From contig JAFSWK010000058.1 of assembly GCA_017444505.1 (NCBI GenBank), forward strand, positions 1 to 39,962: a stretch of 39,962 nt of DNA. Reading direction: 5' to 3'. The position numbers were made by a program, and so were the translations under genes. Source of the DNA: Rhodocyclaceae bacterium (lineage in GTDB: Bacteria > Pseudomonadota > Gammaproteobacteria > Burkholderiales > Rhodocyclaceae). Below, piece after piece: positions 4,699-21,725 of the stretch (its first letter is position 1; each line of letters starts with the position of its first letter). The notes beneath the pieces were generated by a model. It saw only the letters and a list, made by a program, of their open reading frames with translations. It did not search any database and had not been told where the DNA came from.

Positions 4699-4734
4699 GC
4701 GCGCCCGCGCGCGCGTTTGCAAGGAGACCCTGCG

Positions 4735-5262
4735 ATGAAAGCATCCGGCGCGTTGCGCGAGGAAATTTGCTATCCCTTCCTCTACGAGACTTCCTGGCTG
4801 TGCGATTACGAGGTTGCCACCGACGAGCTGTGCGGCCTGATTGGCGCAGCGCTGTCATTGCTGCCGCCCGAGATGGCGGACATCGCCGCCGACCTTGACC
4901 GCCTGCAACCGCTGGCCTTTCACCTCAACGGTTCGCTGCGCGGGCGGCTGGCGGTGGAGGAGGCCGATGTGGACTGGCTGCGCGCACGGCTGGAACAGTA
5001 TCGGGACGAGGTGCGCGATGGCCACGCCGGTTTCATCCTGCCGCGCGGCGAAATGCCCGTGCCGTACCTGTATCAAGGCACTTCGGCGGCGAAACGCGCC
5101 GTGCGCCTGATGGTGCGCATTGAGCAGGAAGGGCGGGAAATTCCGGACGTGTTGCCCCGCTTGTGCAATCTGATGGGCAATTTTTTCTTTGTGCTGGCGC
5201 GCGTCATCAACCGGCGGCGCGGCGTGGCGGAAATTCCCTTCGTCAGCAAAAGCTACGGCTGA
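4735..5262 (+). CDS. PduO-type cob(I)alamin adenosyltransferase-like protein (Cob_adeno_trans fold), atypical N-terminus
   Basis: PduO-type helical-bundle features are present: VATDELCGLIG, LQPLAFHLNGSL, FILPRG and a C-terminal LCNLMGNFFFVLARVINRR. The ATG at 4735 follows AAGGAGA (4721-4727). Confidence 0.55.
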   Translation: MKASGALREEICYPFLYETSWLCDYEVATDELCGLIGAALSLLPPEMADIAADLDRLQPLAFHLNGSLRGRLAVEEADVDWLRARLEQYRDEVRDGHAGFILPRGEMPVPYLYQGTSAAKRAVRLMVRIEQEGREIPDVLPRLCNLMGNFFFVLARVINRRRGVAEIPFVSKSYG

Positions 5263-5963
5263 GGCGGCCACGGCGGCGGGGCGCGCCAGTGCATCCGCCC
5301 GCTGGCAAGGTCGTATTCGGCCAGCGTACTCAATGCGCCGCCAATCTTTGCGGCTTCATAACGCAGCAATTTCAGCCGCCGCACGGTGAGCGCCAGCGGC
5401 GGCGCATCGTTCAGGCAGGCAAAGCGTTCGGCCACTTGCGCGCACGGCCAGGCGTCGGCATAGAGGCCGACGGTGACGTGCGGCACATAGGCGCCTTGCG
5501 GGTGCTGCGGGTTGTCCGTGTGCGTGTGCAGGCAGCGGTGCAGTGCGGCGAGCGTTTGAGCCTCGTCGCGCACGGTAAGGAACGGGGCGGCGGCGAAACT
5601 TTCCAGCGCGCCGATTTCGATGCGGAAAGCGCCCGGATTGCGCGCGCGTAGCGCGGCAAGCTGGGCGGCGATGTCTTGCGCGTCAAATTCATCGGGCGCG
5701 CCCGGCTGCGTTTGCGCCGGAAAACCGCACACCGCCAGCGTGATGTGCGGCTGGCGGCGGTAATTTTTCAGCAGCAAACCCGCCAGCGCACGGCGGGCGG
5801 TGCGCACACGCGCGCGCACTTCGGGGGTGTTCGCGTCAATGCCCCACAGTGCGTACTGCGCGCGCCCCTGCCGCCATTCGGGAAAATCGCGGCATTCATT
5901 GCGCAGCGTGTGGCCAGCGGCAAGAAACTGCTGGCGAAGACGGGCGGCAGACGGCAGGTTCAT
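5253..5963 (-). CDS. 2H phosphoesterase superfamily protein (2'-5' RNA ligase / cyclic phosphodiesterase-like), 236 aa
   Basis: Two HxT motifs sit about 85 aa apart (QPHITLAVCGF and VPHVTVGLYAD). The start was verified as cat at 5961-5963 (MNLPSAARL). The 5' part of track ORF 5253..6296 overlaps the upstream cyclase gene and was discarded. Confidence 0.6.
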   Translation of the reverse strand: MNLPSAARLRQQFLAAGHTLRNECRDFPEWRQGRAQYALWGIDANTPEVRARVRTARRALAGLLLKNYRRQPHITLAVCGFPAQTQPGAPDEFDAQDIAAQLAALRARNPGAFRIEIGALESFAAAPFLTVRDEAQTLAALHRCLHTHTDNPQHPQGAYVPHVTVGLYADAWPCAQVAERFACLNDAPPLALTVRRLKLLRYEAAKIGGALSTLAEYDLASGRMHWRAPPPWPPQP

Positions 5964-5983
5964 TGTGGCGCAGGGGGGCGCGC

Positions 5984-8416
5984 TCAGGCTTGTCCGGAGA
6001 TGGCCGGGCACAGACCGGAGACGGCTTGCGGCGCAGGCGCGCTTGCCGGGATTTCGGGACGGATGTGCACGCGGTTGCGCCCGGCGGTTTTGGCTTGATA
6101 GAGCTGGGCGTCGGCCTGCCGGATGAGGTCGTGGATGCTGGCCTGCTGTGCGTGGCCGGAAACCTCGCCCGAGACGATGCCGATGCTGGCGGTGACGCGC
6201 GCGTAGGGAGAGTGTTCGTGCGGAATGTTGAGCGCTTCGATGGCGGCACGAATGCGTTCGCCAAACAGGGCGGCTTGCTGATGCTCGCACTGGCACCAGA
6301 AGAGGATGAATTCTTCGCCGCCATAGCGGCCACAGAAATCGTAGGGACGCTGCCCGGCGTGGCGGTCAATGACCTTGCCGACGGTGGTGAGCACCGCATC
6401 GCCGGCGGCGTGGCCGTAGCGGTCGTTGTAGTGTTTGAACCAGTCGACGTCGAGCATGGCGATGGTGAGCCGGTGGGGCGCGGAGGCCAGCAGCGGGCGG
6501 ATGTTGGCAAGATAGTTTTCCAGCCCCTGACGGTTGGCCAGCCCGGTGAGCGCGTCTTGCTGGGCGAGGCTTTGGAGTTTTTCCTGCTTGAGGAAACTGT
6601 CCAGCCGCCGGTGGTCCTGAATGGCGCTCAGGGCTGCGCCCATGCAATTGACGAGGACAAACGAAATCAGCACGTGCGGCAGGTCGTCGGTGGGCAGGTA
6701 GATGGCGCGCGAACCGACATAGGTGAGCGTAATCGTCCAGTTGACCAGACTGGCCGCGCCCCAGTGCTGCGCGCCGACCATGTAGTTCAGGAAGATGATA
6801 ATCATCAGCAGTTCGTAAGGAATGTCGCCTTGGCGCTGGAAGGCAATCCAGGCGACATAGCAGACGATGATGCCGTAGGCGAGGGTAAACAGGGGCACCA
6901 GCCGCCAGGCGACGCGCAGCGCCCATTCATGGCGCGTCAGCTCCACGCCCAGACACAGCAGCGGGATGATGAAAAAGGCGTGGGCACCCGCCAGCAACAT
7001 GCCAGCGGGCGCAGAAGGCAACATGAGATTGGCGCTAATCAGCGTGAAATTGATAATCAGGGTGACCATCAACATGCTGAGCAGTTGCGGCTGCTCGATG
7101 AGGCCGCGCAGGCTGTCGAAGCGGGCGCGGTCTTCGCGGGTGACGGTGATTTCGCGCGGCGTGAGCGCGGCGATGTACGCGCCGGGTTCAAAGGGTTTGG
7201 CACCGGCAGGCGCTTCGCTGATTTTGCTGAGGCTGGGGTCGATTTCGTGCGTGCACACCAGATTGCGCCCGCTTTCCTTGGCCAGGTAGAGGGCGCGGTC
7301 AGCCTTGTCCAGCAGTTTGTGGCTGTCTTCGCCCGGCTCGGGCACGTGACGGGTGACGCCTACGCTGACGGTGACTTTGCCGTGGCTGCTCTTGGCGTGT
7401 TCAATTTCGGTGGCTTCGACGGCGCGGCGCAGCCCTTCGCCCAGCGTGCAGGCATCTTGCCGGGGGTTGAACCATACGGCGACAAACTCTTCGCCGCCAT
7501 AGCGGGCGACGTAGTCGGGCTTGGGCGTGGCCTGACGGGCGATGGTGCGCGCGACGGTGGCCAGCACGTTGTCGCCAGCGGCGTGGCCGTAGTGGTCGTT
7601 GTAGTGCTTGAAATGGTCGACATCAATCATCGCTATGGCCAGCGAGGCTTGTTCGCGCGTGGCCTGACGAATCAGGCGCGGCAGCAGGGCGCGCAAATCG
7701 CGGCGATTGGGCAGGCCGGTGAGCGGGTCGTGACGGCTTTGTTCCAGAAAGGTGTTGTTGATGAGAAAGTGATGGCGGGTGACGCGCTCCAGCGTGTGGC
7801 TGGAAAACAGGCTCGCCACCATGGCCAGCAGGATGTAGATGGTGTGCAGGCGGCACAAGGTGGCGTCGGCCTGCCAGAGCCATTCGGGCACGGCCAGCAG
7901 GATGGCAGCGAGCAAACACGGCCAGACGGCATAGCGCCACGGTATGCTGCCAATCAGCGGCGCAAAGAGGGTGAGCAGCAGCAAGAGCTGATAGGTGTGC
8001 AAAAAACCGTAATAGCCGGAAACCCACTGGCTGGAACTGAGTACGCAGACGCCCACCGTCATGCACAGCGTGGTGAGCATGGGCATCCGCGGGGTAAAGC
8101 GCGGCAAAAACGAGGCCGCCATCCAGCCCAGCCAGCAGAGGAAAAAGATTGGCACGCGGCTGATGATGGGCAGCGTGGGCGTGTGCGCGGGCAGATGGCG
8201 CAGGTCGGCCAGACAGAGGAAAAAGCTGGCGTACAGGGTGATGCCCAGCGCGTAGCGGGTCAGTTTGCGGTCGCGCTCGACGAGGTGAAGCAGGTACTGG
8301 TCTTCCAGCTCAGGATTTTTGAAACGCAAACTCCACCACGCCCCGGAGGCGGCAAGCCGGGAAGAACGGGCAGAAGGAAGGCGCCACTGCGTGGCGTCCG
8401 TGCTGGGGGTGTTCAT
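5984..8416 (-). CDS. Twin-module membrane diguanylate cyclase paralog A: 6 TM + GGDEF + 6 TM + GGDEF (810 aa)
   Basis: Two complete GGDEF domains are present. RYGGEEF is encoded at 7484-7498 and GRYGGEEF at 6308-6322. Each follows a DALTGL(P/A)NR box and DVDxFKxYNDxYGHAAGD. Each is also preceded by about six hydrophobic helices. The start was chosen at cat 8414-8416 (MNTPSTD..WSLRFKNPELED) by alignment with the paralogs. The track start at 8614 would overlap paralog B by 86 nt. Confidence 0.85.
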   Translation of the reverse strand: MNTPSTDATQWRLPSARSSRLAASGAWWSLRFKNPELEDQYLLHLVERDRKLTRYALGITLYASFFLCLADLRHLPAHTPTLPIISRVPIFFLCWLGWMAASFLPRFTPRMPMLTTLCMTVGVCVLSSSQWVSGYYGFLHTYQLLLLLTLFAPLIGSIPWRYAVWPCLLAAILLAVPEWLWQADATLCRLHTIYILLAMVASLFSSHTLERVTRHHFLINNTFLEQSRHDPLTGLPNRRDLRALLPRLIRQATREQASLAIAMIDVDHFKHYNDHYGHAAGDNVLATVARTIARQATPKPDYVARYGGEEFVAVWFNPRQDACTLGEGLRRAVEATEIEHAKSSHGKVTVSVGVTRHVPEPGEDSHKLLDKADRALYLAKESGRNLVCTHEIDPSLSKISEAPAGAKPFEPGAYIAALTPREITVTREDRARFDSLRGLIEQPQLLSMLMVTLIINFTLISANLMLPSAPAGMLLAGAHAFFIIPLLCLGVELTRHEWALRVAWRLVPLFTLAYGIIVCYVAWIAFQRQGDIPYELLMIIIFLNYMVGAQHWGAASLVNWTITLTYVGSRAIYLPTDDLPHVLISFVLVNCMGAALSAIQDHRRLDSFLKQEKLQSLAQQDALTGLANRQGLENYLANIRPLLASAPHRLTIAMLDVDWFKHYNDRYGHAAGDAVLTTVGKVIDRHAGQRPYDFCGRYGGEEFILFWCQCEHQQAALFGERIRAAIEALNIPHEHSPYARVTASIGIVSGEVSGHAQQASIHDLIRQADAQLYQAKTAGRNRVHIRPEIPASAPAPQAVSGLCPAISGQA

Positions 8417-8422
8417 TGCGCG

Positions 8423-8464
8423 ATGGTTGGGGAAAGGGCTGCCAGAGCGAAATGGTTGGGGAAA
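8423..8464. repeat. Exact 13-nt direct repeat ATGGTTGGGGAAA x2 (8423-8435 and 8452-8464) in the leader of paralog A
   Basis: Read directly from the sequence. The copies are 29 nt apart start to start. On the coding (minus) strand the repeat reads TTTCCCCAACCAT, and the proximal copy ends 6 nt before the ATG. Confidence 0.8.
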
Positions 8465-8501
8465 AACGGCACGGCAGGCTCGCGTAGACGAACCGTGTGA
8501 G

Positions 8502-8532
8502 ATTGTATCAGGGGGGGATGGAAGGCGGTCAA
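8502..8532 (-). promoter_or_regulatory. Candidate sigma70-type promoter for paralog A (-35 TTGACC, 19-nt spacer, -10 TACAAT on the minus strand)
   Basis: The reverse complement of 8527-8532 is TTGACC, which overlaps the stop codon of paralog B. The reverse complement of 8502-8507 is TACAAT. The spacer is long. This is a motif match only. Confidence 0.25.
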
Positions 8533-10874
8533 AAATCTGCCTGCGGCGTGCTGGCGTAGATGGCGATGCGGTCGCGCCCTTCGGCTTTGGCGCGGTAGAG
8601 GGCGCGGTCAGCATCGGTAATCAGCTGGGTGACGGCGGCCATGTCGGCCAGCGGCGCTTGCGTGCGGGCGTGGCCGACGCTGATGGTGAGCTGACCGGTG
8701 CGGCTCTGGCTGTGGGGGATGCGCAATGTGCGAATGGCCGCGCAGAGCTGTTCGCCCAGCGTGGCGAGGTCGGCTTGCGGGTGGGCGCGCCAGAGCAGCA
8801 AAAATTCTTCGCCGCCATAGCGCACGGCCAGCGCTTCGGGCTGCATGGCGTGCTGGCGCAGGGTGTGCGCGACGGCGGTCAGTACGCTGTCGCCAGCGGC
8901 GTGGCCGTAGTAGTCGTTATAGTCCTTGAAGTGGTCAATGTCGGCCATGGCGACGGTAAAGGCTTGCCCGCCACGAGCCAGCGCGGGCTGCAAGGCGGCG
9001 AGATGACGCTCCAGCCCGGTGCGGTTGGCCAGCCCGGTGAGCGAATCGTGCAGCGCCAGCGTTTGCAGGCGCTCTTTTTTGATGAAACTGTCGAGGGCGC
9101 GCAAATCCTGCACGCGCCCCACCAGCGTGCCGACAATGTTGACCAGAATGAAGGCGCTGGCCGTGCCGGTGAGCGAGTCGAAATAGGAAGAAGGGGCGTA
9201 GTGCAGGTAGAGAAAGACGTTGAGCGCCGAGAGCGACCAGGCCGCCAGCGCCGCAGCAATCCAGGATTGCCCGCCGACGATGTAAATCTGGTAGAGACTG
9301 ATGAGGATGATTTCATACGGCACGTAGCCGCCGCGCGATAGCGCGTAATAAAAGGCATAGCTGTAACACAGGCCGGGAACGAAGATGACGAAGGGCAGCA
9401 AATAGCGCGATTTGCGCAACGCCCAGTCTTGCCGGGAAAGATAGAGCGAAACCAGCAGCGAGGGGACGATGACGCTGAGAATCAGGGTAATAAACGGACG
9501 CGAGACTTCTTGCGCGAGGTTCAGGTGGCTGACTAGGGCGTTGCACAGATTGAGCAACAGACACAACAGCCCGGCGTGAAAAAGCTGGTGGCGCTCGTAG
9601 AGGCCGCGCTCGCGCGCGAAGCGGCGGCGCTCTTCATGGGGCAGTTGTTCGGCTCTGTCGACGAAGCTGGCGCGGGCAGATGGCTGCGCCGGACGACGGG
9701 CGGCAGGCCAGGTGACGGCGGCCAGTACGTCTTCCGGGCGGGTTTGCGCCGTGGGGGCAAGCCCGACGGCTCCGACGCTGATGCTGATTTTCCCTAGCGG
9801 GCTGAGTGCGTGCGGCAGCCCCAGACGCGATACGGCCTGACGCAGCCCTTCGCCCAGCGGCAGCGCCTGCGCGGTGTCGTGACGCCAGACGGCGACAAAT
9901 TCTTCACCGCCATAGCGGGCGACAAAATCGGGGCGCGGCCAGGCTTGCTGGCTGATGGCTTGGGCAATGGCGATGAGCACCGTGTCACCGGCGCTGTGGC
10001 CGTAGTGGTCGTTGTAGGCCTTGAAATAATCGACATCAAACATGGCCACGGCGATGTGCCCGTTGTCTTGCGCGCAGCGTTGCAGCAACTGGGGCAAGAG
10101 CTGGTCCAGCTCGCGGCGATTGGGAAGCCCGGTGAGCGCATCGCGCCGGCTTTGTTCCAGATAGCGGTTGTTGGTCAGAAAGTGCTGGCGCGAGTGGCGC
10201 TCAATGACAAAGCCGCCAAAAATGCCGGTGACCGCCGCCATGGCGAGAAAGCCAATATGCAGGTTGCGCAGGCCGAGGTCGGGCTGGTAGTGCCATTCGG
10301 GCGCGCCAATCATGGCGGCGGCCAGCAGCGTGCAGGGCGCGCCCAGCCGCCACGGCAAACAGCCGGCCAGACAGGCAAACAGCGGAATGACCAGCATGGG
10401 CTGATAGTGGCGAACGACGCCGTTTTCCCACGAAATGCACAGACTGAGGGAAAAACAGCCAATGCACAGCAGCACGCTGATGAAGACCAGCCACGTCTGG
10501 CCGGGGGTGATTTTGTGTTGCCAGCAGGCGTACAGACACAAGCCCCAGCAGGAGAGAAAAAGCGGCAGGCGCAGCGCCAGCGTGCCCAGCGCGGTGTCCG
10601 GCGGCAGGGTGTAAAAATCGGCTATGTACATCACCACAGCGGCAATCAGCGCGACGAGGGCGATGCTGCGCGAAAGCGGACGGTCGCGCTCGCGCATCTG
10701 GGCGATGAAGCTCGCTTCCAGCCCGGCATCCTTGAAGCGCAGCGACCAGAAGGCGTCGGCCTGCGGCGCAGCGCTGGCCGCAGGGAAAAGGGGCGACGAG
10801 GAATCGGCGGGGGCTTCAGGCATGGCGCGGGCAGACAGGCACGCGGGCGGCGTGCGGGGCACGAAAGGTGCCAT
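8529..10874 (-). CDS. Twin-module membrane diguanylate cyclase paralog B: 6 TM + GGDEF (C-terminally degenerate) + 6 TM + GGDEF (781 aa)
   Basis: ARYGGEEF is encoded at 9897-9911 and VRYGGEEF at 8802-8816. The N-terminal FWSLRFKDAGLEASF box is present. The start at cat 10872-10874 is preceded on the coding strand by GGAGCGAGGAAA. An alternative in-frame ATG lies at 10823. Confidence 0.85.
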   Translation of the reverse strand: MAPFVPRTPPACLSARAMPEAPADSSSPLFPAASAAPQADAFWSLRFKDAGLEASFIAQMRERDRPLSRSIALVALIAAVVMYIADFYTLPPDTALGTLALRLPLFLSCWGLCLYACWQHKITPGQTWLVFISVLLCIGCFSLSLCISWENGVVRHYQPMLVIPLFACLAGCLPWRLGAPCTLLAAAMIGAPEWHYQPDLGLRNLHIGFLAMAAVTGIFGGFVIERHSRQHFLTNNRYLEQSRRDALTGLPNRRELDQLLPQLLQRCAQDNGHIAVAMFDVDYFKAYNDHYGHSAGDTVLIAIAQAISQQAWPRPDFVARYGGEEFVAVWRHDTAQALPLGEGLRQAVSRLGLPHALSPLGKISISVGAVGLAPTAQTRPEDVLAAVTWPAARRPAQPSARASFVDRAEQLPHEERRRFARERGLYERHQLFHAGLLCLLLNLCNALVSHLNLAQEVSRPFITLILSVIVPSLLVSLYLSRQDWALRKSRYLLPFVIFVPGLCYSYAFYYALSRGGYVPYEIILISLYQIYIVGGQSWIAAALAAWSLSALNVFLYLHYAPSSYFDSLTGTASAFILVNIVGTLVGRVQDLRALDSFIKKERLQTLALHDSLTGLANRTGLERHLAALQPALARGGQAFTVAMADIDHFKDYNDYYGHAAGDSVLTAVAHTLRQHAMQPEALAVRYGGEEFLLLWRAHPQADLATLGEQLCAAIRTLRIPHSQSRTGQLTISVGHARTQAPLADMAAVTQLITDADRALYRAKAEGRDRIAIYASTPQADF

Positions 10875-10901
10875 TTTCCTCGCTCCGGGCAGGAAAAGAA
10901 A

Positions 10902-13370
10902 CTATTGCGTGTCGGCCTGGGGGGAATCGTCTTCGAGGCCTTGCCCGGCGTGCCAGAGGGCGTCGGCGGGCGGTTCCTGCGCGCCTTGCGGCAGCAGGTG
11001 TTCGCTTTGCAGTACCAGCCGGTTTCTGCCCGTGGCCTTGGCGCGATAGAGGGCGGTGTCGGCGCGGCGAATCATGCGGTCGAGGTTTTTCATGCTGTTG
11101 TCGGCAGAAATGGTGCCATGCGCGATGCCGATGCTGACCGTCACGCGCCCGTGGCGGCTTTTTTCGTGCGGGATGTTCAGGTCGCGCACGCCCTGACAGA
11201 CGCGCTCGCCCAGCGTGCGCGCGTCTTTTTCGCGGATGTGATACCAGATGAGAAGGAATTCCTCGCCGCCATAGCGGGCGGCAAAGTCATACGGGCGCTG
11301 GCGCTGTTCGGCAAGTTCCTGGCCGATGGCGGTGAGCACTGCGTCGCCGGCGGAGTGTAAGTAGTGGTCGTTGTAGTCCTTGAAATGGTCGATGTCGACC
11401 ATGGCCACGGCGACGATGCGCTCGGATTGATCGAGCAGCGGCAACAGGGTGCGGAAATAGTTTTCCAGCCCCTGACGGTTGGCCAGCCCGGTGAGGGTAT
11501 CCTGCGAGGCGATGTTTTCGAGTTTTTCGCTTTTCAGGAAGGTGTCCATCCCGCGCCGGTCCTGGCTCATGGCGACGAAGGCACCGAGGATGTTGAGGGT
11601 GACGAACGGGCCGGCCAGCCCGACGAGATCAATGCTGGTATATGCCGCCCAGATGATGATGCACATGAAGGTGAGCAGCCAGGCGGTGAGGGCGGCGCTG
11701 CGCCAGGATTGCCCGCCGATGACGTAGACCTGAAAGATGGTGAGCAGCATGATTTCGTAAGGCACCTTCTCAAAGGGAATGTCGATGCCGTGCGAAAAAG
11801 CGCTGTAAAAGCTGTAGCAGAAGGCGCTGCCGCAAATGATTACGACAGCAGGCACGATGAGACGGGCGTGTTTTTGCGCCCAGGGCTGGGGACACAGATA
11901 ACAGCCGATGAGCAAGGTGGGCACCACGATGATGGCCTGCATCATGATGGTGACGTGCGAGACAGAAGGAGTGAGGTTGAAAAAATTGACCAGCGCCAGC
12001 AAAAAGTGGACAAACACGTTGGCGATGGAAATCTGGCGCAGGGCGCGCCATTCGTAGAGGCCACGGATGCGGTTCCAGCGCTTGTGGTCATCGGCTGTGG
12101 CAGGAATCAGGCTGAGGAAGCCGATTTCCTTGTCGGCGGCGCGCGCCGCTTCGTCGGGCGGCATACCGTGCGCGGATTGCGTGGCGAGCAAGGCGGCCAT
12201 CGAGTCAATCTTCACGCAGTTGCGCCCGGAATTTTTGGCGCGGTAGAGGGCACGATCCGCCCCGGCCAGCAAGGCGGGCGCTTTGGTGCGGGCGGTGGGA
12301 TACTGGCTGGTGACGCCGACGCTGATGCTCACCATGCCGTGGCCGCTGCGCTCGTGCACAATGTTCGTTTCCTGCACCGCGCGGCGCAGCCCTTCGCCCA
12401 GCGTGGTGCCGTCGTGCGTGGGATTGAACCAGATGGCGGCAAATTCTTCGCCACCATAGCGGGCGACAAAATCGGGCGGATACTGGGCGTGACTGGAAAT
12501 GGCTTCGCCCACGGCGCTGAGCACACGGTCGCCAGCGGCGTGGCCGTAGTGGTCGTTGTAGTCCTTGAAGTGGTCGACATCAATCATCGCCACGGCAATG
12601 GCGACTCTTTCGCGCGCGGCCTGGCGCAGAATGCGCGGCAGGAAAAAATCCAGCTCGCGGCGATTCGGCAGCCCGGTGAGCGGGTCGCGCCGGCTTTGTT
12701 CCAGAAAATTGATGCCGACCAGAAAGTGCTGGCGCAACTGGCGCTCCCGGATATACCCCGCACAGAAGCTGAAAAACGCCGCGCACAGGATGTAGGCCAG
12801 ATGCAGGTTGCGCACGTTGGCGTCGGGCTGGTAGCACACTTCCAGCAAGGCCAGCGCCAGCGCCGAACCAAAGGTGACGACGGTGCAATAGCGCCAGGCC
12901 AAACAGCCAATGAAACACGACAACATCGGCACCAGCAACAAGATCTGGTAGGGGATGTAAATCTGATACAGCCAGCCGATCCACAACGGGGAAATCAGCG
13001 CCAGAGAGGCACCGAGGGCAAAACACATGAGGGCGGGCTGCGACCAGCGCGTGACTTCTTTCTGGTAGATGGCGCTCGTCCAGCCGAAGGCGCAGATGGA
13101 AAACAGCGGGATGCGCAGCAGCAGGGAAGTCCACGCCGCTTCGCTGGGCATGAGGCGAAAATCGGTGACGCTGAACAGCAAGACGGCCAGCAACGTGGTG
13201 ATGAGGATGTTGCGCGACCCCGTGCGGTCTTGCAGCATGATTTGGGTGATGAAGCGGCTCTCCAGCGCGGCGTCCTGAAAGCGCAGGCTGCGATGCTGGG
13301 GCGTGCGGGGGGCTGCCGTCCTGGGGAAGTTGGACGAAGGAGGGGATTGCGCTGCTTGTTGTTGGCTCAT
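10902..13370 (-). CDS. Twin-module membrane diguanylate cyclase paralog C: 6 TM + GGDEF + 6 TM + GGDEF (822 aa)
   Basis: ARYGGEEF is encoded at 12441-12455 and ARYGGEEF at 11266-11280. The N-terminal RSLRFQDAALESRF box is present, and the module order matches A and B. Confidence 0.85.
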   Translation of the reverse strand: MSQQQAAQSPPSSNFPRTAAPRTPQHRSLRFQDAALESRFITQIMLQDRTGSRNILITTLLAVLLFSVTDFRLMPSEAAWTSLLLRIPLFSICAFGWTSAIYQKEVTRWSQPALMCFALGASLALISPLWIGWLYQIYIPYQILLLVPMLSCFIGCLAWRYCTVVTFGSALALALLEVCYQPDANVRNLHLAYILCAAFFSFCAGYIRERQLRQHFLVGINFLEQSRRDPLTGLPNRRELDFFLPRILRQAARERVAIAVAMIDVDHFKDYNDHYGHAAGDRVLSAVGEAISSHAQYPPDFVARYGGEEFAAIWFNPTHDGTTLGEGLRRAVQETNIVHERSGHGMVSISVGVTSQYPTARTKAPALLAGADRALYRAKNSGRNCVKIDSMAALLATQSAHGMPPDEAARAADKEIGFLSLIPATADDHKRWNRIRGLYEWRALRQISIANVFVHFLLALVNFFNLTPSVSHVTIMMQAIIVVPTLLIGCYLCPQPWAQKHARLIVPAVVIICGSAFCYSFYSAFSHGIDIPFEKVPYEIMLLTIFQVYVIGGQSWRSAALTAWLLTFMCIIIWAAYTSIDLVGLAGPFVTLNILGAFVAMSQDRRGMDTFLKSEKLENIASQDTLTGLANRQGLENYFRTLLPLLDQSERIVAVAMVDIDHFKDYNDHYLHSAGDAVLTAIGQELAEQRQRPYDFAARYGGEEFLLIWYHIREKDARTLGERVCQGVRDLNIPHEKSRHGRVTVSIGIAHGTISADNSMKNLDRMIRRADTALYRAKATGRNRLVLQSEHLLPQGAQEPPADALWHAGQGLEDDSPQADTQ

Positions 13371-13432
13371 CGCACGTCAGTTTTTGGGAGGGGCAGGGCA
13401 GACGGCGTGGTGCGCTGCGCTGTCGGGTTTTT

Positions 13433-13459
13433 ATTGTATCCGGAAATTATTGGCCGCAA
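13433..13459 (-). promoter_or_regulatory. Candidate promoter upstream of paralog C (-35 TTGCGG, 15-nt spacer, -10 TACAAT on the minus strand)
   Basis: The reverse complement of 13454-13459 is TTGCGG and that of 13433-13438 is TACAAT. It lies just past the DUF502 stop codon. This is a motif match only. Confidence 0.25.
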
Positions 13460-18855: not shown

Positions 18856-20820
18856 TCAGACAGACGCCGCCTGGATTGCCCGAAGAACAGTTTGCACCGC
18901 AGTGTCGATATCCATTTCGGTGGTATCGATCAGTTGTGCATCGGGCCAGTGTTTCAGCGGGGCATGGGCGCGGGCGGCATCTTGTGCATCCCGCGCGGCG
19001 ATTTCCCGCCGAAGACTGTCAATATTAGCATGAAAACCCATGGCTTGCGCTTGGCGAGTGCGCCGTTGGGCGCGCGCTTCGACGCTGGCGGTGAGAAAAA
19101 ATTTGTGCGTCGCATCCGGAAAGATGACCGAACCCATGTCCCGACCTTCGGCGACCAGCCCGGGGGCGGTGCGGAAGTCGCGCTGGCGCTGGAAAAGCGC
19201 GCTGCGCACGCGAGCGTGCGCGCTGATTTGCGAGGCGAGCTGCGAGATGGTCTCGGCGCGGATGGCATCGGTCACATCGTCGTTTTCCAGCCACACCCGC
19301 CCTTGCGCAAAACGGGCGGGCAAGTCGCGGGCGATGCGGGCAAGCGTCTCTTCATCTTCCGGCGCAATTTGCTGGCGCTGGGCGGCGAGCGCCACGAGGC
19401 GATAGAGCGCACCGCTGTCCAGATGCGTGTAGCCCAGCGCTTGCGCGACGGCGGCGGCCACTGTGCCTTTGCCGGAAGCGGCGGGACCGTCGATGGCAAT
19501 GACCGGCACGGGGCGGCTGATGGCGGCAAAGGCGGTGAAGTATTCGGGGAAGGTTTTGTTCACGCAGGCCGGGTCGCGGATGGTGATGTCGACGCCGCCC
19601 AGCGTGGCGAGCGAAAAACACATTGCCATGCGGTGATCGTCATAGGTGTCGATGGCGGCGGCGCGCAGGCGCGCGGGCGGGGTGATGGTGAGCGCGTCGG
19701 CTTCTTCCTGCACCTGTGCGCCGAGTTTGCGCAGCTCTGTGCTCATTGCGGCCAGCCGGTCGGTTTCCTTGACGCGCCAGCTGGCGATGTTGCGCAACCG
19801 GCAAGGGCCGTCGGCAAACAGGGCGGCGACGGCCAGCGTCATGGCGGCATCGGGAATGTGGTTCAAATCCAGATCAAAGGCGCGCAGCCGAGCGTTTTCG
19901 GGCGGGCGGGCGAGGATGTGATGCGGGTGCACTTCAATGCGCGCGCCCATATTGGCGAGGGCTTCGGCAAAGCGCACGTCGCCCTGAATGCTGTCGGCAC
20001 CGACACCGTCGACACGTACTTCACCGCCGCCAATCGCACCGGCGGCGAGAAAGTACGAGGCAGACGATGCGTCGCCTTCGACATGCAGCACGCCCGGGCT
20101 GCGATAGCCGTGCGTGCCGGGCAGGAAGAAGGTGTTGTCTGCACGCGCTTCGATTGCCAGACCGAAACGGCGGGCAAGCGCGATGGTCAGATCAATGTAG
20201 GGGCGGGAAATCGTCTCGCCTTCCAGCGCCAGCGTGATGGGGCGGCGCAGCAGGGGCAGGGCGATGAGCAAGGCGCTGACGAACTGGCTGGAAACCGTGC
20301 CGCGCACGCGCACCTGCGTGGCACCATTGTCCTGATGCGGGGCGATAGTTAGCGGCGGATAACCTTCGTTGCCGGTGCAGCCAATCTGCGCGCCGAGGCT
20401 GCGCAGCGCGTCCAGCAGGTCGCCAATGGGACGTTCGTGCATCCGCGCGGTGCCGTGCAGGTGGTAGTGGCCACCGGCGAGGGCAAGCACGGCAGTGAGC
20501 GGTCGAAATGCAGTGCCGGCGTTGCCCAGAAACAGGTCGGCCTGACGCACGGGCAAGACGCCGCCGCAGCCGGTGATGACAATCGCGGGCGGCGCATCGG
20601 CCTGCGCGGGCAGCGTGCGGCAGTTGATGCCCAGCGCGGTGAGCGCTTCCATCATGCGCGCGGTGTCGTCCGAGGCCAGGCAGTTTTCGATGCGGGTTTC
20701 GCCTTCACTGAGCGCGGCCAGCAACAGCACGCGGTTGGAAATGCTTTTGGAACCCGGCAGACGCACGCGGCCTTCCACGCCCAGCAGCGGCGGCAGCAGC
20801 AAATCGGGCGAGGCGCTCAT
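18856..20820 (-). CDS. aroA: Fused 3-phosphoshikimate 1-carboxyvinyltransferase (AroA) and cytidylate kinase (Cmk), 654 aa
   Basis: The N-terminal part is EPSP synthase ([17 protein letters not shown]...KTFPEYF). It continues in frame with no stop into cytidylate kinase ([16 protein letters not shown]...LDSGALYR). The junction is at about 19500-19530. The start, cat at 20818-20820, overlaps the tyrA stop as ATGA. Confidence 0.85.
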
Positions 20821-21725
20821 CCTTCGCCCTCTTCCGGCGCGGCGTTCTGGGCTTGTTCGATTTGGGCAATCCAGTTGTTGCGCGCGTCGCGGGCGGTGGA
20901 AAAATGCTTGTGGAGCAAATCGCTTTTCCCGGCCAGCAGCAGCGAGCGCAGATAGGCCAGTTCGCTGAGGTATTGGTCCAGTTCGGCCAGCAGCGGCTGG
21001 CGGTTGGCGATGCAGATGTCGCGCCACATTTCGGGGTGGCTGCCGGCAATGCGGGTGAAGTCGCGGAAACCGCCGGCGGCGAAGGCGAAAAGCTGTTCGG
21101 CGTTGGCGCGTTTGGCCAGGTCGTGCACCAGCCCATAGGCGAGCAGGTGGGGCAGGTGGCTGACGGCGGCAAAAATGCGGTCGTGGTCTTGTGGGTGCAT
21201 TTCAACCACGCTGGCACCGCAGGCGCGCCACAGTTCGCTGACCAGGCGGGCGGTGGCGGTGCTGTTTTCGGGCAACGGCGTGAGCACGACGCGCCGCCCG
21301 TCGAAGAGATGGGCGTGGGCGGCATCCGGGCCGCTGTGTTCCGTACCGGCGATGGGGTGGGCGGGGATGGCGTGCGTGAGATGGTGCGGCAGGTGGCGGT
21401 AGATGGCTTCGACGACGTCGCCCTTGGTGCTGCCCGCGTCAGTGACGATGGTGGTGGGCGGAAGATGCGGCGCGATTTGTTCCAGCACCTTGCCGGTTTG
21501 CGCTACCGGACAGGCGAGCAGCACGAGGCTGGCACCTTCCAGCGCCTGCGGCCAGCTCTCAGGGGCTTCGTCGATGATGCCCAGCGCGATGGCGCGTTCC
21601 AGGGTTTCACGGCTGCGACCCATGCCGACAATCTGTTCGGCCAGTCCGCCCCGACGCAGCGCCAGGGCGAACGAGCCGCCAATCAGACCGACGCCGCAGA
21701 TGACGATTTTTTTGAAGGCTTTCAT
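20817..21725 (-). CDS. tyrA: Prephenate dehydrogenase
   Basis: It begins with a Rossmann-type motif, [23 protein letters not shown], and contains GSTK and HPIAGTE motifs. The start was verified as cat at 21723-21725. Confidence 0.85.

Follow-up and report, generated by a model that had tools for sequence, protein, structure and literature searches.

Four genes lie head to tail on the minus strand of a 39,962-nucleotide (nt) stretch of DNA from a Rhodocyclaceae bacterium (contig JAFSWK010000058.1), the whole of which is called the window in what follows. In the order in which they are read, they are A (10902-13370, 822 amino acids, aa), B (8529-10874, 781 aa), C (5984-8416, 810 aa), and D (5253-5963, 236 aa), and the spacers between them are 27 nt (A-B), 112 nt (B-C), and 20 nt (C-D). 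All four open reading frames (ORFs), with their coordinates and gap lengths, are as the original prediction from this DNA had them. A, B, and C appear to encode membrane diguanylate cyclases, each with two GGDEF domains in one chain, and D encodes a 2H phosphoesterase with a LigT-like fold. The original prediction saw in these genes a self-contained module for the synthesis and turnover of a cyclic nucleotide. The view developed here, which I consider likely, is that the locus is a clade-specific tandem array of three fused cyclases of the ImcA type, with a functionally unrelated 2H gene at its end. A recent foreign origin of the array can be set aside, since GC content and GC content at third codon positions of A through D match those of the flanking genes.

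Each of the three large proteins has two stretches that match the Pfam GGDEF family, PF00990, with full scores of 277 bits for A (E 5e-83), 252 bits for B (E 2.5e-75), and 284 bits for C (E 4e-85), against a cut-off of 23.8. TIGR00254 matches as well, and no further Pfam domain rises above threshold in any of them. The first domain of A lies at 12216-12704 (about aa 223-385) and the second, which gives the best Pfam stretch, at 11019-11510 (aa 621-784). B has its first domain at 9717-10160, truncated at the C-terminal end, and its second at 8568-9056 (aa 607-769), again the best stretch. The domains of C are at 7262-7735 (aa 228-385, here the best stretch is the first) and 6068-6559 (about aa 620-783), all of them, like the genes, on the minus strand. 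The prediction of six GGDEF domains holds insofar as there are six domains bearing GGEEF (in A at residues 306 and 701), but the first of B is without its last helix, a matter taken up below.

The motifs DxLTGLxNRR, DxDxFKxxND, GHxxGD, and RYGGEEF are invariant in both domains across 24 members of the family, so that A, B, and C, to judge from their sequences, are membrane diguanylate cyclases with catalytic motifs intact, except for the damaged first domain of B. The Asp of GHxxGD marks guanine-specific GGDEF enzymes. It is kept in all six domains, and hybrid GGDEF enzymes, which make cyclic GMP-AMP, were rejected on that reading. RxxD is the feedback-inhibition site known from PleD. It occurs, as RPYD, only ahead of the second GGEEF in A and in C, and B lacks it in both domains, so the second domains of A and C would be the only ones to retain feedback inhibition.

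The three proteins align over their full lengths, with 39-41% amino acid identity, and the order of modules is common to them: an N-terminal SLRF..LE box, about six transmembrane (TM) helices, GGDEF, about six more TM helices, and GGDEF again. This bears out the paralogy that had been read from the shared N-terminal box and module order. The near-identical DNA said to accompany it was overstated. The longest exact match among the paralogs spans 39 nt, and blastn finds 69-77% identity, confined to the parts that encode GGDEF domains. Recent gene conversion among the paralogs is rejected on the strength of these values, and the paralogs are old.

The halves of a single protein are related as well. 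They are 32-40% identical, and the similarity reaches through much of the TM part. Each large protein is an internal duplication. A half opens with an amphipathic N-terminal helix, followed by about six TM helices and then by a long stalk helix that leads into GGDEF. Pfam has no family that matches the membrane modules, even at E = 10.

The half resembles a known enzyme. In Pseudomonas aeruginosa, ImcA (PA1851) joins six TM helices to a GGDEF domain and is an active cyclase, and its cryo-EM structure (8WCN) is that of a homodimer held together by the 6TM domain (PMC10904736). Residues 10-387 of C align with residues 27-408 of ImcA (phmmer, E 6e-39), an alignment that runs from the LRF..ELE box across the TM region and through GGDEF. 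The predicted model of C (predicted local distance difference test, pLDDT, 81; predicted template-modelling score, pTM, 0.69) finds 8WCN first in a Foldseek search, with a template-modelling score (TM-score) of 0.78 on the target over 383 aligned columns at 26-27% identity. For the C-terminal half, the sequence match to ImcA begins only at the last TM helix; this half is homologous to the N-terminal half of the same protein. The two kinds of protein thus have the same N-terminal LRF..ELE box and the same six-helix TM part, and the GGDEF domains of both carry GGEEF. They differ in that ImcA has one module per chain and works as a homodimer, whereas here two diverged modules share a chain and the cyclases form arrays of three or four paralogs. 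Because there are two modules per chain, the twin proteins are fused variants rather than ImcA orthologs. Enzymes of the ImcA type are also marked by control through an IsmP-like CHASE4 partner and through iron; general Pfam scans of the window's long ORFs show no such CHASE4 protein.

Synthesis of cyclic di-GMP (c-di-GMP) is described as requiring that two GGDEF domains loaded with guanosine triphosphate (GTP) meet (PMC7825114). Since ImcA pairs through its 6TM domain, and since two loaded GGDEF domains are needed, the twin protein is most simply seen as a covalently fused ImcA-like dimer. Each chain joins two ImcA-type modules (amphipathic LRF..LE helix, six TM helices, stalk helix, GGDEF) head to tail. 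The single chain would then be a 12-TM pseudo-dimer and would probably make up the active enzyme by itself, one half from each module, so that catalysis would be intramolecular, and the two membrane halves could gate the meeting of the two catalytic domains. Were both domains needed, one would expect the residues of both to be kept, as they are in the 24 family members. Across the family to which the window's proteins belong, N-terminal halves group with N-terminal halves and C-terminal halves with C-terminal halves, which argues for a single fusion before the family spread.

There is a parallel to this arrangement in mammals. Membrane adenylyl cyclases are built as 6TM-C1-6TM-C2, the same succession of membrane and catalytic parts, and Foldseek aligns AC5, AC8, and AC9 over 850-950 columns, if loosely (root-mean-square deviation 16-18 A, TM-score 0.36-0.40). 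The evolutionary logic is also shared, from a homodimeric half-enzyme to a fused pseudo-heterodimer, and Rv1625c is the single-module bacterial counterpart of the membrane adenylyl cyclases. The catalytic domains differ, GGDEF here and class III cyclase domains there. Moreover, adenylyl cyclases retain one active and one degenerate site, whereas a c-di-GMP product needs two active sites, and both are conserved in the twin proteins. If the fused-dimer idea is true, then this is a natural single-chain diguanylate cyclase, whose catalytic halves and membrane sensors are free to diverge independently. It would offer a clean system in which to learn how membrane domains gate GGDEF dimerization, and would closely mirror the way in which mammalian adenylyl cyclases evolved from homodimeric ancestors.

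The design is not confined to the window. Its own family comprises about 22 clusters at 90% identity with full-length matches, all of them metagenomic, and about seven representatives at 50% identity. Beyond that, among the best 150 representatives at 50% identity, at least 72 have the twin design, that is, 650-950 residues, and two intact GG[DE]EF motifs separated by a TM block; a further 46 are single modules the size of ImcA. In several other lineages a protein's own halves match each other best, a sign of independent fusions. Each membrane block is preceded by its own copy of the LRF(P)..LE box in some representatives (P0143, P0145, P0146, P0147, P0172, P0213-P0355). No description of a fused, active GGDEF-GGDEF membrane enzyme was found in the literature searched. 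The proposed fused-dimer design is a variant, so far uncharacterized, of an enzyme of known kind, and it is recurrent in many lineages.

How the array has changed can be judged from its syntenic relatives. In L083 and in the species represented by L081 and L001 (deposited as a Rhodocyclaceae metagenome-assembled genome, MAG), the order is dps-oxyR-DUF502-[four twin cyclases]-2H-PduO-tldD. A is the positional ortholog of the first gene of the array (64-67% identical to those of L081 and L083), B of the second (66-78% identical to those of L083 and L081), and C of the fourth, the last cyclase in the relatives (76-78% identical to those of L081 and L083). Gene 3, a 56% identical paralog of gene 4, is what occupies the extra region between the orthologs of B and C (L081 7463-9916, L083 10001-12436). 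It is missing from the window, where there is only the 112-nt spacer at 8417-8528.

B has changed still more recently. Strains L170 and L171 have about 99% DNA identity to the window, and in them B has 804 aa in place of 781. The difference is a segment of 23 residues, LAAADHALYRAKEAGRDRVEDSN, absent from the window's B by a 69-nt in-frame deletion at about 9717-9728 on the minus strand (aa 383-386), between two LAA repeats. The first GGDEF domain has thereby lost its last helix, with the motif ADxALYRAKxxGRD, which all other family members examined have kept. With its first domain damaged, B of this strain may be weakened or inactive. The absence of gene 3, the deletion in B, and the poly-C tracts whose lengths differ between strains (see below) show that the array is evolving fast, and it is a small example of how a c-di-GMP network diversifies within a genus.

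D is a different sort of protein. It matches PF13563 (2_5_RNA_ligase2) with 79.4 bits against a Pfam cut-off of 27, and its two HxT motifs, H73-I-T75 and H162-V-T164, are invariant in 21 homologs, in agreement with the HxT..HxT (2H) assignment made at the outset. It also has a conserved N-terminal segment specific to its family, RNxxRDFxEW..GR..Y.LW. The model of D has a pLDDT of 85, and the solved structures closest to it are all 2H enzymes: Pyrococcus 1VDX, Thermus 1IUH, and E. coli LigT (5LDO), with E from 2e-6 to 5e-5. Searching solved structures by sequence with the 2H family gave only a marginal match to YjcG (E 0.27). D thus has in common with LigT and ThpR the two HxT motifs, PF13563, and its nearest structures, and differs from them in its identity to solved structures of only 13-17%, its extra N-terminal segment, and a score below the cut-off for ThpR. 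It is a protein with a LigT-like fold and is not an ortholog of ThpR. Most likely, it would act on 2',3'-cyclic phosphate or 2'-5' substrates, be they RNA ends or nucleotides.

The one 2H enzyme that I found reported to cleave cyclic dinucleotides is Acb1, a phage nuclease directed against the CBASS defence system, which degrades 3'-5' cyclic oligonucleotides without metal (PMC9117128). D shares the 2H fold with Acb1, but models of Acb1 come only 42nd and 49th among the viral structures matched (E 5e-3 to 1e-2), with generic LigT-like proteins ahead of them. D itself has no PADLOC or PHROG match, and an origin of D in a defence system or phage was rejected. Downstream, a gene for a PduO-type cob(I)alamin adenosyltransferase (4717-5262, plus strand) converges on D, the two overlapping at their 3' ends by 10 nt (5253-5262).

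If D were bound to the cyclases by function, one might look for the two together elsewhere. Members of the 2H family occur widely among Rhodocyclales, Burkholderiales, and a few other groups. Among 80 species genomes that have a 2H relative, 79 lack the array, and only the syntenic relative has twin-GGDEF genes adjoining. Nor is there any other conserved neighbour that might reveal what the 2H protein does, the most frequent neighbouring family being present at only 16 of the 80 loci. In Thauera the gene lies ahead of chromate transporter genes, in Zoogloea between those for a TonB-dependent receptor and thioredoxin, and in Polaromonas between DUF1653 and prfC, and the invariant residues of the 2H protein are unchanged in these unrelated contexts. 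A Pseudothauera locus (L049) has a PduO homolog 4.8 kb from the 2H gene and genes like those of cobalamin uptake between, a link that did not generalize.

A more lenient question is whether any GGDEF gene stands upstream, taken here to mean a co-directional gene ending within 600 bp upstream of the 2H gene. Outside the clade this is so at 2 of 73 assessable genome loci and at none of 54 assessable metagenome loci, 2 of 127 in all. None of the three loci at which a twin-GGDEF gene occurs as a singleton has a 2H gene. Cyclase and 2H gene have stayed adjacent in the syntenic clade alone (L001/L081, L083, L170, L171), and the expectation that it would be conserved among relatives fails beyond this genus-level group. 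Of the proposed synthesis and turnover module, then, the first part stands, as membrane cyclases with their catalytic motifs, for which the original name of second-messenger machinery is apt, and the second is not supported, since the adjacency is not conserved and the fold is LigT-like.

The spacers of the array offer hints as to how its genes might be expressed. An extended -10-like element, TGATACAAT, can be read upstream of C at 8502-8510, and GATACAAT, a -10-like element upstream of A, lies at 13433-13440, just past the stop codon of the DUF502 gene (both on the minus strand). The window has just two copies of GATACAAT, the one at the latter place and one at 8502-8509 ahead of C. TACAAT is found at corresponding places upstream of array genes in the relatives, including the site before gene A in L081 and L083. 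The gaps A-B (27 nt) and C-D (20 nt) contain no terminator-like site, and in L081 and L083 the stop codon of the last cyclase overlaps the start of the 2H gene. The array is probably not a single operon. I infer two transcription units, A-B and C-D, with expression from at least two promoters, one serving A and perhaps B, the other C and perhaps D. The 76-nt spacer between the DUF502 gene and A also contains a GC-rich hairpin (13401-13424), with a T run after it as read on the plus strand, or an A run before it as read on the minus strand. It could be a structure in the 5' leader of the A transcript.

Poly-C tracts are almost confined to the intergenic regions of the array. One of them, C7 at 8511-8517 (minus strand), sits between TTGACC (8527-8532, overlapping the stop codon of B) and the -10-like element of C, and it is the sole run of G or C of at least 7 nt in the window. 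Another, C6 at 5973-5978 (minus strand), is in the C-D spacer, 9 nt upstream of the start codon of D. Their lengths vary among close kin. The C-D spacer is 20 nt with GCGCG-C6 in the window and 24 nt with GCG-C12 in L170 and L171, which are about 99% identical to it (the tract of L170 is at 6437-6448). L081 has C9 (7451-7459) and L001 has C13 (5012-5024) 3 nt ahead of the start of gene 3, in strains 98.7% identical. L083 has poly-C tracts at 9985-9997 and 12514-12529, with C16 ahead of gene 4. As a further observation, C13 in L001 keeps an upstream ATG in the reading frame of the annotated start, and in L081, with C9, the frame of that ATG runs into a TGA that overlaps the start.

This pattern of lengths suggests slipped-strand variation, with assembly error a possible source of differences in metagenome assemblies. 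Homopolymer phase variation has an example in the poly-C tracts of the Bordetella fim promoters. As there, the tracts here lie in promoter or 5' regions of individual genes and differ in length between near-identical strains; they differ in that those of the window are short (C7 and C6). The tracts near the starts of C and D might modulate the expression of those genes. The combined idea, that the twin proteins are single-chain pseudo-dimeric diguanylate cyclases, counterparts of the 12-TM adenylyl cyclases, and that poly-C tracts switch them individually, is a tentative one, to which I would grant somewhat less than an even chance.

It remains to weigh the view that the locus is an array of fused cyclases followed by an unrelated 2H gene. 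D belongs to a stand-alone family widely found in the Betaproteobacteria, and its place after C would be a local accident of genome arrangement. Several observations weigh against this. There is no canonical c-di-GMP phosphodiesterase in the 40-kb window (Pfam, long ORFs). D reaches only 26.4 bits against the ThpR equivalog, TIGR02258, where the cut-off is 65.7. The two GGDEF genes found outside the clade, at L039 7600-9852 (a Zoogloea MAG) and L056 6349-7929 (a Burkholderiales MAG), are co-directional with the 2H gene and directly upstream of it, and two such genes in the genome set compare with 0.31-0.72 expected, a slight and non-significant excess (P 0.04-0.16, according to the model). C and D are probably co-transcribed and co-expressed in this clade, because the 20-nt gap has no terminator and the stop and start codons overlap in L081 and L083. 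As for the fused dimer, the pairing of the two GGDEF domains within a chain is a proposal, and a strict scan for the sigma-70 consensus called no minus-strand promoter in the junctions, so that the proposed promoters draw solely on the repeated TACAAT elements.

Some of these points would be explained if D were a dedicated turnover enzyme, a 2H phosphodiesterase that, needing no metal, would open the c-di-GMP made by the adjacent cyclases or break down pGpG. The tight spacing of C and D, with stop overlapping start in relatives, invites the idea, as do the lack of EAL and HD-GYP in the long ORFs of the window, the GGDEF genes just upstream of 2H in two other lineages, and the precedent of Acb1, a 2H fold that cleaves 3'-5' cyclic dinucleotides (PMC9117128). 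Yet the precedent does not reach far enough: T4 Acb1 does not cleave c-di-GMP (PMC9117128), and the model of D is nearer to LigT than to Acb1. The adjacency is limited to one genus-level clade, with 2 of 127 loci elsewhere, where the GGDEF proteins (one Cache/PAS-GGDEF, one TM-GGDEF-hemerythrin) have architectures unrelated to the twin cyclases. Twin-cyclase singletons do without a 2H partner, and the same invariant 2H residues are found beside chromate transporter, TonB-receptor/thioredoxin, or prfC genes. I regard a turnover role as very improbable. Its boldest form, in which D has been recruited as a metal-independent phosphodiesterase of c-di-GMP or pGpG, translationally coupled to the last twin cyclase, and represents a third class of hydrolase beside EAL and HD-GYP, is a shade more improbable yet. 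Position alone gives no ground for labelling D a c-di-GMP phosphodiesterase in annotation. A milder possibility is that D is co-regulated with C but shares no substrate with it, acting, for example, as a phosphodiesterase of RNA ends or 2',3'-cyclic nucleotides, the two forming a regulatory unit only. This would suit the LigT-like fold of D, the length-variable poly-C 9 nt ahead of its start codon, and the C-D junction, at which the genes lie close together or overlap in each of the four syntenic genomes and strains. Elsewhere, however, the 2H family stands alone or in unrelated operons, so any coupling of C and D would be recent and possibly inconsequential, and I think this unlikely as well.

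The cyclases themselves may be doubted on other grounds. Perhaps the twin proteins serve mainly as sensors of c-di-GMP or GTP, or as scaffolds, with little cyclase activity, as degenerate GGDEF proteins do. In this strain the first domain of B is incomplete, gene 3 is dispensable, being absent from the window, and A and C have RxxD sites, all of which could be taken in that sense. It is hard to see, however, why GGEEF and the other catalytic residues should then be invariant in both domains across the family and why 72 other twin representatives should have two intact motifs. The closest characterized relative, ImcA, is moreover an active cyclase (PMC10904736). A role chiefly in sensing is therefore very improbable, and the view of an array of fused, active cyclases with an unrelated 2H gene behind it continues to be the one I favour.

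The remainder of the window is of a different character. Pfam scans detect neither EAL nor HD-GYP in A through D or in the other long ORFs, so that profile searches, with GGDEF twice in each of A, B, and C and PF13563 in D, give the picture that the original prediction had drawn, including the absence of EAL and HD-GYP within the long ORFs. No riboswitches, other RNA elements, or tRNAs were found in the window. The other long ORFs match housekeeping families only, rpsA, aroA-cmk, tyrA, hisC, pheA, serC, gyrA, and cobS among them. One of these, at 18856-21027 on the minus strand, is a single ORF of 723 residues with both EPSP synthase (AroA) and cytidylate kinase (Cmk) domains, and appears to be a fused bifunctional gene.

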